Assembly: GCF_003334815.1 (NCBI RefSeq)
Contig: NZ_QOWO01000001.1
DNA: 64,000 nt
Strand: one strand, 5' to 3'
Source of the DNA: Escherichia coli
GTDB lineage: Bacteria; Pseudomonadota; Gammaproteobacteria; Enterobacterales; Enterobacteriaceae
Shown here: in pieces, positions 872-7,920 of the stretch
Numbering within the stretch: position 1 is the first letter of the stretch
Layout of the letters: the number at the start of each line of letters is the position of its first letter
Made by a program: the position numbers and the translations under genes
Notes under the pieces: model-generated
What the model saw: only the letters and a program-made list of their open reading frames with translations
What the model was told of the DNA's origin: nothing
Database searches by the model: none

Positions 872-3271
872 TTGCCTGGAGCGACAAGGATGTTAAAAAA
901 AACGTTACTGGCCTACACCATTGGTTTTGCCTTTTCTCCCCCAGCCAATGCAGATGGTATAGAGATTGCCGCTGTTGATTTTGATCGGGAAACATTAAAA
1001 TCACTAGGTGTAGATCCTAATATATCGCATTATTTTTCCCGTTCAGCCCGTTTTTTGCCAGGTGAATATTCACTGATAGTATCAGTAAATGGCGAAAAAA
1101 AAGGCAACATTGCTACGCGCTTTGATGAAAATGGCGACATTTGTCTTGATCAGGCATTTCTGCAACAAGCCGGTTTAAAAATTCCTTCTGAAGAAAAAAA
1201 TGGCTGTTACGACTATATATTGTCCTACCCGGGTACCACAATCACACCATTACCTAACCAGGAAGCGTTAGATATTATCGTTTCACCACAGGCGATCATT
1301 CCCATAGGGTTGGATCTCACAAACGCAGCAACTGGTGGAACAGCTGCGCTGCTAAACTACTCTCTGATGAGCAGCCGTGCAGAATTTTCTAATGGGAGTT
1401 CGGACTACTCCCAGGCTGCACTTGAAGGTGGGATTAATATTAATGACTGGATGTTACGCAGCCATCAGTTCCTTACACAAACAAATGGCACATTCAGTAA
1501 CCAGAACTCGTCAACCTACCTTCAACGTACCTTTACAGATCTTAAAACACTCATGCGAGCAGGTGAAGTTAACCTCAATAATAGCGTGTTGGAAGGAGCC
1601 AGTATTTACGGTATCGAAATCGCACCGGACAACGCATTGCAAACCAGCGGCAGTGGTGTGCAAGTTACTGGTATAGCCAACACCTCTCAGGCTCGTGTCG
1701 AGATTCGTCAACAAGGAGTTTTAATTCATTCCATTCTGGTTCCTGCGGGCGCATTCACTATCCCTGATGTACCTGTTCGCAATGGTAATAGTGATCTTAA
1801 TGTCACCGTTGTCGAAACAGACGGTAGTTCGCACAACTATATTGTTCCCTCCACCCTGTTTAATCAGCATGTAGAAAGCTTCCAGGGTTATCGCTTCGCG
1901 ATAGGGCGGGTAGACGATGACTATGACGAATCACCTTGGGTAATTAGTGCATCGAGCGGATGGAATCTGACACGCTGGAGTGCAATGAACGGCGGCGTTA
2001 TCGTAGCAGAAAATTATCAGGCGGCATCAATCCGGTCGAGTCTGGTTCCCCTGCCCGATTTAACAGTGAGCAGCCAAATTAGTACATCGCAGGATACGAA
2101 AGACTCACTGCAAGGACAGAAATATCGTCTTGACGCGAACTACAATCTCCCATTTTCACTTGGGCTAACAACCAGCCTCACTCGATCTGATCGCCATTAT
2201 CGCGAACTGTCTGAAGCGATTGATGATGATTATACCGATCCGACTAAAAGCACTTATGCGCTTGGTTTAAACTGGTCTAACTCCATTCTGGGTGGTTTCA
2301 ACATCAGTGGCTATAAAACATATAGTTACGACGGTGACAATGACTCAAGCAACCTTAATATTAACTGGAACAAAGCGTTCAAACACGCCACGGTTTCCGT
2401 CAACTGGCAGCATCAACTTAGTGCTTCAGAAAATAATGAAGACGATGGTGATCTGTTCTACGTCAACATCAGTATTCCATTTGGCAGATCAAACACCGCC
2501 ACACTGTATACTCGCCATGACGATCATAAAACCCACTATGGTACTGGTGTCATGGGAGTCGTCTCAGATGAGATGTCCTACTATGTGAATGCTGAACGAG
2601 ATCACGACGAACGTGAAACGAGCTTGAACGGCAGTATCAGTTCCAATCTCCATTACACCCAAGTCAGCCTTGCCGCAGGAGCAAGCGGCAGTGATAGCCG
2701 TACTTACAACGGTACGATGTCAGGTGGTATTGCCGTACATGATCAGGGAGTGACCTTTTCACCGTGGACTATCAATGACACTTTCGCCATCGCAAAAATG
2801 GATAACAATATTGCAGGTGTCAGAATTACATCTCAGGCAGGCCCAGTATGGACAGATTTTCGGGGTAATGCCGTCATTCCATCAATCCAGCCGTGGCGAA
2901 CATCAGGAGTTGAGATCGATACCGCCAGCTTGCCAAAAAATGTCGATATCGGTAACGGCACAAAAATGATCAAACAAGGCCGTGGTGCAGTAGGGAAAGT
3001 CGGATTCAGTGCGATAACACAACGCCGTGCATTACTCAATATCACACTTTCCGACGGCAAAAAACTGCCCAGAGGCGTTGCGATTGAAGATAGTGAAGGC
3101 AACTATCTGACAACATCAGTGGATGACGGTGTTGTATTCCTCAATAACATCAAACCGGACATGGTGCTAGATATAAAAGATGAGCAGCAATCATGCCGTA
3201 TTCACCTTACATTCCCAGAAGATGCACCAAAAGATGTGTTCTATGAGACAGCAACAGGAGAGTGCCAATGA
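872..3271 (+). CDS. yhcD: Outer-membrane fimbrial usher protein
   Basis: ORF track 799 aa; recognised as YhcD usher; canonical start may be the internal Met (MLKKTLLAY) a few codons downstream. Confidence 0.9.
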   Translation: MPGATRMLKKTLLAYTIGFAFSPPANADGIEIAAVDFDRETLKSLGVDPNISHYFSRSARFLPGEYSLIVSVNGEKKGNIATRFDENGDICLDQAFLQQAGLKIPSEEKNGCYDYILSYPGTTITPLPNQEALDIIVSPQAIIPIGLDLTNAATGGTAALLNYSLMSSRAEFSNGSSDYSQAALEGGININDWMLRSHQFLTQTNGTFSNQNSSTYLQRTFTDLKTLMRAGEVNLNNSVLEGASIYGIEIAPDNALQTSGSGVQVTGIANTSQARVEIRQQGVLIHSILVPAGAFTIPDVPVRNGNSDLNVTVVETDGSSHNYIVPSTLFNQHVESFQGYRFAIGRVDDDYDESPWVISASSGWNLTRWSAMNGGVIVAENYQAASIRSSLVPLPDLTVSSQISTSQDTKDSLQGQKYRLDANYNLPFSLGLTTSLTRSDRHYRELSEAIDDDYTDPTKSTYALGLNWSNSILGGFNISGYKTYSYDGDNDSSNLNINWNKAFKHATVSVNWQHQLSASENNEDDGDLFYVNISIPFGRSNTATLYTRHDDHKTHYGTGVMGVVSDEMSYYVNAERDHDERETSLNGSISSNLHYTQVSLAAGASGSDSRTYNGTMSGGIAVHDQGVTFSPWTINDTFAIAKMDNNIAGVRITSQAGPVWTDFRGNAVIPSIQPWRTSGVEIDTASLPKNVDIGNGTKMIKQGRGAVGKVGFSAITQRRALLNITLSDGKKLPRGVAIEDSEGNYLTTSVDDGVVFLNNIKPDMVLDIKDEQQSCRIHLTFPEDAPKDVFYETATGECQ

Positions 3272-3813
3272 AACGGATAATAACAGGATGCCTGCTGCTG
3301 AACTTCGCCATGGCCGCTCAGGCAGAGTGTAATATCTCCAGTAGCATACAAAATATCGACTATGGCAAACGAAGTGCTGCCATGCGCCAAGTTGACCGGG
3401 GTAAAACAACACAATTAGCAGACAGAACAATCACGCTGGTAATGCAATGCGATCAGGACGCTCATATTCGTGTTCAGTTGAATACCGCTAATATTTCCAA
3501 CAACGGATTTGGATTTGGCCCGAATGGTTCATTAAATCTGATCGCCAGCGATGCATTTTCAGGTAGTAACAATCTCGACCTGGCGTTAGCCAGTGGCAAA
3601 AATGACAATCCGGGCAGCACAGGAACAGCATCAATTAGTACTTCCCCCAATAATTGGCTGGTGTTTATGCAAAATGGTCAAGAAGTGGTAATTGATAGCG
3701 GTAAAAGCGTTAGCCTCACACTGACAATGGCTCCAGCTTTTAAGGATGAAGGGGAACTAACCGACATGACAGATATTACAGGCAATCTGACGGTCCTGGT
3801 GGAGGCAAAATGA
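3262..3813 (+). CDS. yhcE: Fimbrial-like protein, apparently intact
   Basis: ORF track 183 aa with signal-peptide-like N-terminus; position after the usher; no IS interruption visible. Confidence 0.7.
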   Translation: MPMKRIITGCLLLNFAMAAQAECNISSSIQNIDYGKRSAAMRQVDRGKTTQLADRTITLVMQCDQDAHIRVQLNTANISNNGFGFGPNGSLNLIASDAFSGSNNLDLALASGKNDNPGSTGTASISTSPNNWLVFMQNGQEVVIDSGKSVSLTLTMAPAFKDEGELTDMTDITGNLTVLVEAK

Positions 3814-4526
3814 ACAATGTAAAATTACTGATTGCCGGAAGTGCCTTTTTTGCCATGTCAGCGCAAGCCGCTGATAGAGTATCAATTGACGTTAAGGTGA
3901 CTCTGGAAGCTGCAGCTTGTACTCCAATACTAAGCAACGGCGGAGTTGTTAACTTCGGTAGTCATTCAGTCAATAGACTTTCAACGCAGCACTACACACA
4001 GATTGGAACACGTAATATTAATATGACTATAACTTGCGAATCCGCTACCGGCATTGCGATTACCGCTCGTGATACACGAATGGATAGTATGACCACCGGA
4101 AAAGATAGTGGGGGTCAGAGTGGTGTAAAATATACCTTAAATGGCGGAGGTTATATTAGCCAGACAACGCGCTTATTCGGCTTAGGGAAAACAAAAGATA
4201 ATAAAAATATCGGTAGTTATGCCGTGTTAATTGATAGCAACAACATTAGTGCCAGCAATGGTAGCCAGACGTTAGCTGTATCAATAGCAGGTGCAGATGC
4301 CGTCATAACAGGGCAAAAAAGAGCATGGCAAACGCTCACCGCTTATCCGCTTGCAGTCGATCAAAGCTATTATTACACCTTTGTAAAACCAGGTGAAACA
4401 ACCCCAACTCCTGTAACGAACGCCATTATACCGCTTCAGGTGAGCGCATCTATCGCGAATGATTTAGGCGGTTCAGAAAAAATCGAACTTGATGGGAAAG
4501 CTGTGATAAGCGTAGTCTACTTGTGA
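3810..4526 (+). CDS. yhcF: Fimbrial-like protein / putative adhesin subunit
   Basis: ORF track 238 aa; signal peptide (MNNVKLLIAGSAFFAMSAQA); overlaps the yhcE stop. Confidence 0.75.
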   Translation: MNNVKLLIAGSAFFAMSAQAADRVSIDVKVTLEAAACTPILSNGGVVNFGSHSVNRLSTQHYTQIGTRNINMTITCESATGIAITARDTRMDSMTTGKDSGGQSGVKYTLNGGGYISQTTRLFGLGKTKDNKNIGSYAVLIDSNNISASNGSQTLAVSIAGADAVITGQKRAWQTLTAYPLAVDQSYYYTFVKPGETTPTPVTNAIIPLQVSASIANDLGGSEKIELDGKAVISVVYL

Positions 4527-4710
4527 TAACAATGCCGGACAGGAGTACTATCAGGCATTCGTTTTATACGATCGGTTAATGTTTCAGGAAAGCTCTTCGC
4601 ATATCTTGGGGAAAGTAAATGTAATACGCTGTTCTTAATTGTTCAGTGCTCACCCCCCAGAGTATAGCTCATTCCATTATTCAACTTAGCTCCATATAAA
4701 GGGACAGATA

Positions 4711-5838
4711 ATGGAATCGCTCTCAGAAGGAACCACAGCAGGCTACCAGCAAATCCACGACGGTATTATTCATCTGGTCGATAGCGCCCGGACGGAAACG
4801 GTACGTAGCGTTAACGCGTTAATGACCGCGACGTACCAGGAAATTGGCCGACGAATTGTCGAATTTGAACAAGGTGGCGAGGCCAGGGCTGCGTATGGTG
4901 CGCAGCTAATCAAGCGACTATCAAAGGATTTATGTCTAAGGTATAAGCGTGGGTTCTCTGCAAAAAACTTACGCCAAATGAGGCTTTTTTACCTCTTTTT
5001 TCAACATGTTGAAATTCGCCAGACAATGTCTGGCGAATTAACACCATTGGGAATTCCGCAGACACCGTCTGCAGAATTCCCATCGGCAAAGATTTGGCAG
5101 ACGCTGTCTGCCAAATCTTTCCCCTTGCCCAGGTCCACCTACGTCCGTTTACTTTCCGTTAAAAACGCTGACGCCCGCAGCTTTTATGAAAAAGAGACGC
5201 TCCGCTGTGGCTGGTCTGTTCGCCAGCTAGAGCGGCAAATTGCGACCCAGTTTTATGAGCGGACACTACTGTCACATGACAAATCAGCCATGCTGCAACA
5301 ACACGCTCCTGCCGAGACGCATATTCTTCCGCAACAGGCGATACGCGATCCCTTTGTGCTCGAATTTCTGGAATTGAAAGATGAATATTCAGAATCCGAT
5401 TTTGAGGAGGCGCTGATCAACCACCTGATGGATTTCATGCTGGAACTTGGGGATGATTTTGCCTTTGTTGGTCGGCAGCGAAGGTTACGCATTGATGACA
5501 ACTGGTTTCGTGTCGATCTGCTGTTTTTCCACCGCCGTTTACGCTGCCTGCTAATCGTCGATCTAAAAGTGGGCAAATTCAGCTATAGCGATGCCGGACA
5601 GATGAATATGTATCTCAACTACGCCAAAGAGCACTGGACGCTACCGGATGAAAATCCGCCCATCGGTCTGGTTCTCTGTGCAGAGAAAGGAGCCGGAGAA
5701 GCGCATTATGCTCTGGCAGGTTTGCCTAACACCGTTCTGGCAAGCGAATATAAGATGCAACTACCTGATGAGAAACGACTCGCAGATGAACTCGTTCGAA
5801 CACAGGCGGTGCTAGAGGAAGGCTATAGACGCCGTTAA
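4711..5838 (+). CDS. yhcG: DUF1016-family protein (PDDEXK nuclease-like YhcG)
   Basis: ORF track 375 aa; recognised as YhcG; contains three in-frame palindromic DNA units at 5013-5116. Confidence 0.85.
   Translation: MESLSEGTTAGYQQIHDGIIHLVDSARTETVRSVNALMTATYQEIGRRIVEFEQGGEARAAYGAQLIKRLSKDLCLRYKRGFSAKNLRQMRLFYLFFQHVEIRQTMSGELTPLGIPQTPSAEFPSAKIWQTLSAKSFPLPRSTYVRLLSVKNADARSFYEKETLRCGWSVRQLERQIATQFYERTLLSHDKSAMLQQHAPAETHILPQQAIRDPFVLEFLELKDEYSESDFEEALINHLMDFMLELGDDFAFVGRQRRLRIDDNWFRVDLLFFHRRLRCLLIVDLKVGKFSYSDAGQMNMYLNYAKEHWTLPDENPPIGLVLCAEKGAGEAHYALAGLPNTVLASEYKMQLPDEKRLADELVRTQAVLEEGYRRR
5013..5116. repeat. Three tandem palindromic units (core GCAGACA-N1-3-TGTCTGC) inside the yhcG coding sequence
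   Basis: Read directly: aattcgccagacaATGTCTGGCGAATT (5013-5039), gaattccgcagacaccgtctgcagaattc (5051-5079), tttggcagacgctgtctgccaaa (5094-5116). Confidence 0.8.
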
Positions 5839-5852
5839 TTTCAGCGGTTTCG

Positions 5853-5879
5853 AATTCTGCAGACAGTGTCTGCAGAATC
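5853..5879. terminator. Fourth copy of the same palindrome, just after the yhcG stop and before the nanQ stop; probable bidirectional hairpin
   Basis: attctgcagacagtgtctgcagaat is a perfect 13-bp-arm palindrome between convergent genes. Confidence 0.5.
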
Positions 5880-5897
5880 TTTAAAACGAACTAAGTT

Positions 5898-7230
<1,333 letters not shown>

Positions 7231-7234
<4 letters not shown>

Positions 7235-7920
7235 AGCACCGCCTTTTTCATCGCTGTGTTGTACCACTGACAAATGTGCTCAAGACGCGTGATTGCAGAA
7301 CCGACCGTCACCGCCCACGCGCCGTGGCGCATCGCATCCGCCGCCTGAGCAGGCGTGTTGTAACGCCCTTCGGCAATCACCCGACATCCGGCGTCGCTCA
7401 ACGTTTTCACCAGCGCCAGATCCGGCTCTTCTGGCGTTTCAGGCGTGGTATAGCCAGAAAGCGTAGTGCCAATAATTTCGGCTCCCAGCTTTTGGCATGC
7501 CAGGCCGTCTTCCGGCGTTGAGCAGTCGGTCATCGCCAGTAAACCGTGATGGTGAATACGTGCCAGCAGCGTTTCAACAGGCACCGGACGCGGGCGGTCG
7601 GTGCCGTCAATGGCGATAATGTCCGCGCCCGCCTGCGCCAGCGCATCAACATCTTCAATATAGGCCGTGATGCGTACCGGAGAATCCTCCAGATCGCGTT
7701 TCACAATTCCAATAATCGGCACGCTCACCACCGCACGCGTGGCTTGCAGATTTGCCACACCTTCAATGCGAATGGCAACCGCGCCCGCCTGTTCTGCCGC
7801 TAATGCCATGGCGGCGACGATTTCGGGTTTATCGAGCGGGCTGTCCGGAACCGGCTGGCAGGAGACAATCAGGCCACCGTTAGCAGCGATTTTTTGATCC
7901 AGTTGTGCAAGTAACGACAT
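7231..7920 (-). CDS. nanE: N-acetylmannosamine-6-phosphate 2-epimerase
   Basis: ORF track 243 aa; canonical start [10 protein letters not shown] (ATG at 7920), giving 229 aa. Confidence 0.9.

Follow-up and report, generated by a model that had tools for sequence, protein, structure and literature searches.

Within the window, the 64-kb stretch of Escherichia coli contig NZ_QOWO01000001.1 that was analysed here, the yhcG gene contains three tandem palindromic units, each translated in frame, while a fourth, solo unit follows its stop codon. Analysis of these units and their relatives showed that the palindromic nucleic acid is the conserved entity, and that the peptide it encodes, I-x-Q-T-x-S-x-[EKQ], is its translation and a passenger. 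By comparison of gene sequences, the unit was also shown to be an ancient and intrinsic part of DUF1016/YhcG genes, occupying the same site and codon phase, and not a recent insertion. The features concerned are:

4711..5838, + strand: yhcG coding sequence (CDS), 375 aa, with DUF1016_N and a YhcG_C PD-(D/E)XK nuclease domain (open reading frame (ORF) list, Pfam)
5011..5123, + strand: linker-coding segment with three tandem units on a 39-nt (13-codon) period
5013..5039, + strand: unit 1, AATTCGCCAGACA-A-TGTCTGGCGAATT, encoding IRQTMSGEL
5050..5080, + strand: unit 2, GGAATTCCGCAGAC-ACC-GTCTGCAGAATTCC, encoding IPQTPSAEF, with one C.A mismatch
5085..5123, + strand: unit 3, AAAGATTTGGCAGAC-GCT-GTCTGCCAAATCTTT, encoding KIWQTLSAKS
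5839..5882, + strand: solo unit 4 (palindrome 5854-5878), which shares a short stretch of 5' homology with the first in-gene unit

Palindromic units in the window

A first-pass annotation of this DNA had described four palindromes, three of them translated as RQTMSGE, PQTPSAE and WQTLSAK, and both the units and the peptides were found as described. The arms of units 1, 3 and 4 were 12–18 nt long and 94–100% complementary: 13 bp and 100% in unit 1 (5013-5025 / 5027-5039), 18 nt and 94% in unit 3 (5085-5102 / 5106-5123), 12 bp and 100% in unit 4 (5854-5865 / 5867-5878). The third unit had been placed at 5094-5116; it is real, but that range covers the core only. The palindrome of unit 2, at 5052-5078, can be lengthened to 5050-5080. 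Successive units start 39, 39 and 762 nt apart. Allowing up to two mismatches, the core GCAGACANTGTCTGC had four matches in the window, where shuffled sequence gave a mean of 0.28 and none of 100 shuffles reached four. All four units folded stably, with energies of -15.6 to -24.6 kcal/mol (z = -5.4 to -8.4 relative to shuffles); the individual values were -19.1 kcal/mol for unit 1 (z = -7.0), -23.0 for unit 2 (z = -8.4) and -24.6 for unit 3 (z = -8.0).

The fourth copy is perfect and lies between the stop codons of yhcG (5836-5838) and the convergent nanQ (5898-5900), as had been noted. It remains in the yhcG frame beyond the stop, where its translation would be FQRFRILQTVSAES, akin to FQRIEILQTVSGES in other alleles; 30 of 40 nt in this region are identical to the FQRIEI-unit region of other yhcG alleles, and a natural allele, P0021, reads through into it. 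On the minus strand, a 59-aa ORF at 4910-5089 reads ...ILQTVSAEF...IRQTLSGEF..., resembling the yhcG peptides, since the two strands of a unit code for almost identical peptides; it is almost certainly a spurious product of the palindromes.

Conservation of the palindrome rather than the peptide

Covariation between the arms was assessed across 118 distinct units, preselected for at least 10 of 13 pairs, which tempers the result. Among these, 92% of stem cells were paired, compared with 76.9% after shuffling (0 of 500 shuffles as high) and with 21–45% in controls where the partner column was slid. Compensatory, two-sided change was seen in 11 of 12 stem pairs. The triplet at arm positions 7–9 (NNN) took 16 distinct complementary forms, its complementarity being kept in 93 of 135 units. 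A second set, defined by the QTxS peptide and so free of preselection for pairing, had at least 10 pairs in 101 of 129 units.

Codon choice within the unit was almost fixed. Serine in the QTxS motif was encoded by TCT in 125 of 129 cases, against 7% of serine codons elsewhere in these mostly G+C-rich genes, glutamine by CAG in 128 of 129, and the isoleucine of the unit by ATT in 112 of 116 (27% elsewhere). When each unit was recoded synonymously according to the codon usage of its own gene, keeping the peptide, only 5.7 of 13 positions paired, compared with 11.4 observed. Furthermore, the residue before Q foretold the two residues after S: F was followed by GK (8/8), W by AK (5/6), V by AQ (10/18) and Y by DK (2/2). 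These correlations within the linker follow base complementarity, not chemistry.

In an AlphaFold model of YhcG, built on a 47-sequence alignment, residues 101–129 lacked secondary structure and had predicted local distance difference test (pLDDT) scores under 50. The product of the units is thus a predicted disordered linker, which joins the first helical part of the N-terminal domain to the remaining protein. Given the covariation, the forced codons, the residues linked by complementarity and the disorder of the linker, it is the palindrome that is conserved and the QTxS peptide that is merely translated. A functional protein repeat, in which QTxS would be phosphorylated or would act as a short linear motif, the palindrome being incidental, would account for a motif that is widespread in the family; but synonymous versions lose the pairing, rare codons are fixed, and the palindrome survives changes of peptide (QPVVAE, YTVCRE, HNGVVE, RDAARLE) in a disordered segment where residue correlations track the bases. 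As a sole explanation this is refuted and thus extremely improbable; at most, the peptide adds a secondary constraint.

A segment within a Pfam domain is here dictated by a DNA palindrome instead of by protein function. The unit is thus a natural case of nucleic-acid covariation made visible as amino-acid correlation, with a bearing on annotation, on coevolution-based structure prediction and on the reading of 'conserved motifs'.

The unit across the DUF1016 family

The sample consisted of 80 genome loci (59–93% identity) together with remote genes fetched singly, and the unit count covered 84 genes; the alignment-based locus search returned relatives of at least 59% identity only. It covered beta- and gamma-proteobacteria, Acidobacteria, Planctomycetes, Nitrospirae and metagenome organisms. 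At least one unit was present in 82 of 84 genes, with 135 units overall, of which 130 shared a common codon phase; one of the two apparently unit-less genes, L070, had a perfect palindrome in the hairpin scan. The consensus is 25–31 bp long, ATT-NNN-CAGAC-nnn-GTCTG-N'N'N'-AAT. Perfect hairpins with arms of at least 9 bp occurred at 5.4 per kb in the linker, compared with 0.04 in the rest of the gene and 0.10 in the 4-kb flanks.

Unit number varied between one and six per gene, and between one and three among E. coli alleles. Successive units were separated by 39 nt in 31 cases, by 36 nt in six and by 78 nt in six. QTxS units numbered one in 105 of 120 close homologues, two in five and three in eight, and YhcG alleles of 349, 362, 370, 375 and 382 residues in E. 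coli differ by whole units. The orthologue alignment proposed with the first-pass annotation did reveal additional sequence in K-12, where YhcG has two more units than most homologues and approximately 26 residues beyond most orthologues. On the evidence of its spacing, however, K-12 yhcG is a three-unit tandem expansion, in register at 39 nt, and the extra residues do not mark the insertion of a mobile element.

In remote homologues (36–44% identity), which occur in bacteriophage exclusion (BREX), type III restriction and mobilisable plasmid contexts, a palindrome was found at the same place with other cores and other peptides:

IQQPVVAES: ATTCAGCAACC-AGT-GGTTGCTGAAT, in six 60-nt units
ILPTVSEEL: ATTCTTCCGACA-G-TGTCGGAAGAAT
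IPYTVCRES: ATTCCCTACACAGTGTGTAGAGAAT
IHNGVVEI: TCCACAAC-GGC-GTTGTGGA
FLDAARRE: TTCTCGACGC-AGC-GCGTCGAGAA
IRDAARLES: ATTCGAGACGCG-G-CGCGTCTCGAAT

The sequence of the IRDAARLES palindrome was predicted by back-translation from the peptide before the DNA was inspected, and matched. The first-pass annotation had considered that the segment might be conserved in distant homologues without the DNA palindromes; instead, palindromes accompany the segment and outlast the change of peptide. The CAGAC and ATT blocks were near-invariant in genes at least 59% identical and altered in the remote homologues. Back-translation of 66 remote representatives showed that the linker permits a perfect palindrome with 13-bp arms 1.79 times per 100 aa, against 0.44 elsewhere, an enrichment of about fourfold over a high background.

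The six 60-nt (20-codon) repeats belong to gene P0216, at 3114-3480 of metagenome contig L005, in a low-G+C organism. Each repeat carries two different palindromes, ATTCAGCAACC..GGTTGCTGAAT and TAAAGACA..TGTCTTTA, a doublet form of the unit. A Fic-domain gene adjoins P0216.

Solo copies and the architecture of the E. coli locus

In the window, gene order runs from the yhc fimbrial genes through yhcG (+) and nanQ (-) to nanK and nanE; the convergent neighbour is:

5898..6362, - strand: nanQ (yhcH) (ORF list, RefSeq annotation)

A fifth copy is found in K-12, outside the window, 13 nt past the gltD stop codon (L003). Among the 80 genome loci, copies after yhcG and after gltD were confined to Escherichia, and the MG1655 annotation has a repeat feature at neither solo copy. 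E. coli strains without the gltF-yhcADEF-yhcG segment had exactly one unit, in a 67-bp gltD-nanQ spacer, with the left flank of the gltD-side copy and the right flank of the copy after yhcG. A single unit with composite flanks indicates that the variable segment of approximately 8.4 kb, gltF to yhcG, is bracketed by units. Strains with gltD-yhcG-nanQ and no fimbrial operon lack the post-gltD unit and have another hairpin instead; therefore, the gltD-proximal junction differs among the empty, yhcG-only and fimbrial operon plus yhcG architectures. In strain Z142-7 (L002), the gltD-yhcG spacer has this other hairpin, AGCGCCG...CGGCGCT, at 1370-1400.

The E. coli solo copies look like the first in-gene unit as it occurs in two distinct allele types, with about 13 nt of upstream sequence also similar. 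This likeness points to their derivation from the gene, probably on at least two occasions. The genome-wide search for copies that had been recommended was performed in E. coli with a 32-mer BLAST search, which would miss divergent copies; this identified one to five places per genome (median 2), with 12,782 of 12,784 on chromosomes, and those places that were examined were all in the gltD-nanQ locus.

Outside E. coli, viral contigs contained 41 pattern matches, almost all with complementary NNN: 23 were in intact DUF1016 ORFs, four in DUF1016 fragments beginning at units, and one in a decayed linker whose two units are spaced by 39 nt; the remainder were intergenic. Metagenome contigs contained at least 133 units; among the matches listed, all three NNN pairs were complementary in 87 (1.6% expected by chance), 91 lay in DUF1016 ORFs and 42 outside, the latter including approximately six recognisable gene remnants and approximately 26 units in short frames. 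Several solo units are situated 3–15 nt past stop codons, namely after gltD and after yhcG in E. coli, and in L099 and L103. In viral contig L099, a perfect unit with 13-bp arms, GATTTTTCAGACAGTGTCTGAAAAATC, occurs at 1342-1366 of a phage, between a head maturation protease gene, whose stop codon it follows by 15 nt, and the major capsid gene; there is no DUF1016 sequence nearby.

These solo units bear on the suggestion that a small palindromic element, comparable with repetitive extragenic palindromes (REPs), Rickettsia palindromic elements (RPEs) or miniature inverted-repeat transposable elements (MITEs), became inserted in yhcG and was then co-opted to code for protein. Parts of that proposal hold: the element acts at the level of DNA, two of the three in-gene units have no counterpart in most homologues, and solo copies exist between genes in E. 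coli, phages and metagenomes, with about one quarter to one third of pattern matches (among matches listed) outside recognisable DUF1016 ORFs. The 26 or so extra residues of K-12 would also be expected. Insertion, however, is contradicted, since the sampled DUF1016 genes inherited at least one unit, in this position and codon phase, from their ancestor (it is present there in 82 of 84) and the K-12 extras are in-register tandem expansion. Moreover, there are no more than five places per E. coli genome, those examined all being at the gltD-nanQ locus, and the similarity of the solo copies' flanks to the gene suggests that the copies came from the gene. For the in-gene units, then, a mobile origin is largely refuted and very improbable.

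Evidence for a DNA-level or RNA-level feature

Where the arms were imperfect, the type of mismatch was compared on the coding strand. Across the genome and metagenome sets, approximately 49 were of A.C type and 24 of G.U type; with the outermost position removed, the genome set alone had 31 A.C and 20 G.U, and positions 7–9 of the metagenome set had 18 A.C and 4 G.U. This excess of A.C is the reverse of what would be expected of a stem in sense-strand RNA. In addition, half of the units are symmetric up to one central base, which a hairpin loop cannot use. On these two grounds, a DNA-level feature is modestly favoured over one acting in the sense RNA.

Scans for RNA signals were negative. Rfam 15 models applied to 4500-6000, with E up to 1, produced a single match, to a spurious miRNA (23.6 bits against a gathering score of 80), and a promoter and terminator scan made no call at any unit. 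The terminator-like role ascribed to copy 4 was not upheld: as a Rho-independent terminator it received no call at 5853-5879 on either strand, and its stem is followed by CTTTAAAACG on the plus strand and TCGAAACCGC on the minus, without a T-tract.

The units could nevertheless act in mRNA, as a stem-loop array that causes ribosome pausing at the domain boundary, blocks 3' exonucleases or serves as a processing or autoregulatory site, and so hold down a nuclease that may be toxic, or tune the relative expression of genes in restriction or BREX operons, with the solo copies as 3'-end hairpins. The stems are stable (-16 to -25 kcal/mol) and covary strongly, many DUF1016 genes stand in operons with overlapping or abutting genes (BREX in L086, type III restriction in L087), and the solo units that closely follow stop codons would suit such a role. 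But G.U pairs are not favoured, and on the coding strand A.C-type mismatches are roughly double the G.U-type in number; the symmetry of half the units leaves just one central base, which cannot serve as a loop; there is no Rfam match, nor a U-tract or terminator call at copy 4; and pausing needs no invariant core sequence. An mRNA role was consequently judged quite improbable.

The host protein

By its domains, the yhcG product is a member of the DUF1016/YhcG nuclease family, matching PF17761 over residues 19–184 (1.3e-36), a match that exceeds the model by about 30 aa, and PF06250 over residues 208–360 (1.6e-56). Its best PADLOC match was the candidate defence gene PDC-S02 (2.8e-131, residues 9–370), a profile match consistent with a putative defence role. 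A fold search showed the C-terminal domain to resemble Cas4-family, NucS and Hjc nucleases, and returned no match for the N-terminal domain; a sequence search of the PDB with YhcG found no relative. In agreement with this fold, the YhcG-type nuclease domain was placed nearest to archaeal Holliday-junction resolvases by Kosinski et al. 2005 (PMC1189080). The family is very large, a search at E up to 0.001 giving over 21,000 cluster representatives, and recurs in restriction, BREX and other defence loci as well as in mobile elements. Its interest lies in being large, uncharacterised and linked to defence.

Proposed exchange and slippage at the linker

Some pairs of DUF1016 genes were discordant in nucleotide identity between the N-terminal part and the remainder, L064 and L068 being 61% and 92% identical, respectively. 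In 18 of 19 strongly mosaic pairs the best single change-point fell at the 3' edge of the linker, and at least two to three independent events were represented. When gene nt 1-430 and 431-1150 were compared within the sets L064/L068 and L013/L022/L023/L027, the N-terminal third was 60–67% identical and the remainder 86–96%. The N-terminal third of DUF1016 genes evolves faster in general, its mean identity being 14 points lower, which suggests that this part may be under module exchange or diversifying selection. In the K-12-like window, yhcG differed strongly from the Z142-7 allele (L002) in one patch only:

4942..5120, + strand: divergent patch, gene nt 232-410, 37–73% identity in a sliding window

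Outside nt 232-410, yhcG is 87–100% identical to that allele; the patch comprises the units and about 80 nt before them. DUF1016 fragments that start at units were observed in L119, L124, L130, L206, L224 and L230.

In-register change of copy number, mosaic breakpoints, truncated fragments and a bracketed indel together fit a site prone to slippage and recombination, and lend circumstantial support to a role of the units in recombination. The explanation preferred here is that a DNA hairpin or cruciform forms a junction for recombination and slippage, and that a structure-specific nuclease, perhaps YhcG itself, may read it; this explanation is held tentatively, with belief a little short of even. 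Under this explanation the unit would work as DNA and not as sense mRNA, as a site capable of forming a hairpin or cruciform. Slippage at the units would change linker length in register, the units would mark the point at which N-terminal and nuclease modules are exchanged between genes, and events at the junction would leave behind truncated gene fragments and solo units. Symmetry might be kept through selection on the stem or, alternatively, through templated correction within a strand. The invariance of the CAGAC and ATT blocks hints that a protein may also read the unit, and the obvious candidate would be the Holliday-junction-resolvase-like YhcG nuclease. The units would thereby account for the length polymorphism, mosaic alleles and orphan palindromes around E. 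coli yhcG.

Besides the preselection of units for covariation, several observations weigh against this explanation and its premises. The breakpoints at the linker may merely reflect the survival of functional chimeras, and few independent events were resolved. A mere fragile site needs no invariant core blocks. None of the 78 loci in non-Escherichia genomes had a solo unit within 4 kb of the gene, so bracketing is not general, and the palindrome was not found in remote homologue L092. Finally, the asymmetry of mismatches is confounded by coding (Glu/Lys) and by mutation bias.

The involvement of the nuclease may be stated more strongly, as a hitherto undescribed partnership of nuclease and substrate in which the resolvase-like domain of DUF1016/YhcG recognises the cruciform or hairpin of its own linker and of solo units. 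This specific form is decidedly unlikely. Cutting at units could then promote gene conversion and the exchange of modules, let the nuclease cassette spread in the manner of homing, or allow the state of the DNA to be sensed during phage infection, and the position of the site within the gene would ensure that enzyme and target are inherited together.

The near-invariant blocks could belong to operator- or iteron-like sites, which YhcG, through its N-terminal domain, or a partner protein would putatively bind, for autoregulation or marking of the locus, with solo units as further targets. The ori iterons in the linker-coding part of lambda O and parS inside spo0J are models for such an arrangement. 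It would explain why CAGAC and ATT are near-invariant at 59% identity and above and changed in remote homologues, the fixed CAGAC-N3-GTCTG spacing, the tandem in-frame array in a linker, as in lambda O, and the presence of solo units in intergenic phage DNA. However, a dimer on duplex DNA requires no complementarity at the uncontacted NNN, which is complementary in 93 of 135 units, and the N-terminal domain matches no known DNA-binding fold. By analogy with these models, binding of this kind is conceivable and distinctly doubtful.

Alternatively, the unit may have no function, being a self-correcting quasi-palindrome in a linker that tolerates mutation, where template switching keeps the arms, slippage makes the copies and inheritance is passive. 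Perfection of quasi-palindromes by template switching is established in E. coli. This would suit units that are near-perfect beyond obvious need and without a strand-specific wobble signature, the variable copy number, the disordered host segment, and the solo units that remain perfect after loss of the surrounding gene sequence. Against it, at least one unit has been kept in 82 of 84 genes, even with the minimal linker of L089, though it could easily be deleted; and the core and ATT are invariant while NNN drifts, with codon phase shared by 130 of 135 units. Purely passive persistence is unlikely, though its probability is not negligible.

A coding segment dictated by its palindrome offers a concrete, testable handle on the biology of DUF1016 genes, by means of hairpin and cruciform substrates and of synonymous mutants that break the symmetry.

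Separately, viral contig L124 (IMGVR_UViG_2534681820_000001) contains two 179-nt direct repeats, at 4686-4864 and 6008-6186, that are 94% identical. Each is a DUF1016 fragment opening with two palindromic units. A 1.3-kb cassette between the two repeats encodes a SocA-like antitoxin and adjoins a gene for a XerA/integron-integrase-like tyrosine recombinase (6534-7598, - strand). L124 may represent a cassette structure using unit-bearing repeats.

Comparison with known systems

The closest parallel in form is with the lambda ori iterons in gene O, likewise tandem dyad-symmetric repeats lying in frame in DNA for a flexible linker, where a cis element is translated as a repeat peptide. The three units, 39-nt period and disordered linker of yhcG share this iteron-like character. 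Unlike lambda O, YhcG is a predicted PD-(D/E)XK nuclease and no initiator, and the arms of its units covary, which those of iterons need not do; the chromosomal context of yhcG in E. coli also argues against a replication origin. REPs and REPINs, with their RAYT genes, are likewise short hairpin palindromes with conserved and covarying positions, tied to one nuclease-type gene, and with solo intergenic copies often placed after stop codons. REPs are extragenic, however, and number hundreds per genome, whereas the home copies of the yhcG unit are in coding sequence, at five places or fewer, and the nuclease is unrelated to RAYT. Identity with REPs or bacterial interspersed mosaic elements was rejected because three of the four copies are inside the CDS, E. 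coli genomes have only one to five places by a search insensitive to divergent copies, and MG1655 has no repeat annotation there.

RPEs resemble the unit in being palindromic DNA translated in frame, but they are 100–150 bp long and dispersed among many unrelated genes, while the yhcG unit is about 27 bp and restricted to one site and phase in one family. A mobile palindrome of RPE or MITE type was rejected, given that occupancy of one site and phase extends to orthologues and remote homologues alike. The 12-bp repeats of type IC hsdS genes (EcoR124I/II) are also in-frame linker repeats, whose copy number shifts by unequal crossing-over or slippage and alters the spacing of modules; DUF1016 genes share their setting, often being in restriction or BREX loci, but hsdS repeats are not palindromic. 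At the quasi-palindromic hotspots for template switching, as in thyA of E. coli, the mechanism likewise keeps or makes complementary arms without selection, but those are isolated mutational hotspots, whereas the yhcG unit is conserved at one site across a family.

Other candidates were also rejected: a CRISPR (clustered regularly interspaced short palindromic repeats) array, since the spacers are 9–14 nt, translated in frame, and separate three copies only; integron attC or the core site of a tyrosine recombinase, with a central region of only 1–3 nt in the unit and no recombinase gene among the neighbours of yhcG; a Hin- or Xer-type recombination site, again with regard to the 1–3 nt centre; and a site for NanR or another local regulator, because the element also occurs in genes with unrelated neighbours. 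The unit belongs to none of the lambda iteron, REP/RAYT, RPE or hsdS classes, and falls among cis-acting palindromic repeats embedded in coding DNA. No description of palindromes in DUF1016 genes was found in the searchable literature.

Genomic settings

Individual loci illustrate the range of contexts in which DUF1016 genes occur. In L086 the gene lies inside a BREX locus, ahead of pglZ and brxL; in L087 a type III restriction operon includes it, flanked by the genes for the methyltransferase and the ResIII helicase, stops and starts overlapping; and in L089 it is carried on a mobilisable plasmid, adjoining a relaxase gene. Within E. coli, the yhcG locus is often broken by insertion sequences. 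Examples come from the genomes H1 (NZ_CP075462.1), H8 (BL21, NZ_CP060121.1) and MG1655 (L131, 7557-8751): IS1 underlies the yhcG-nanQ match in strain NT1F10, a transposase splits yhcG in BL21, and IS5 splits yhcE in MG1655.

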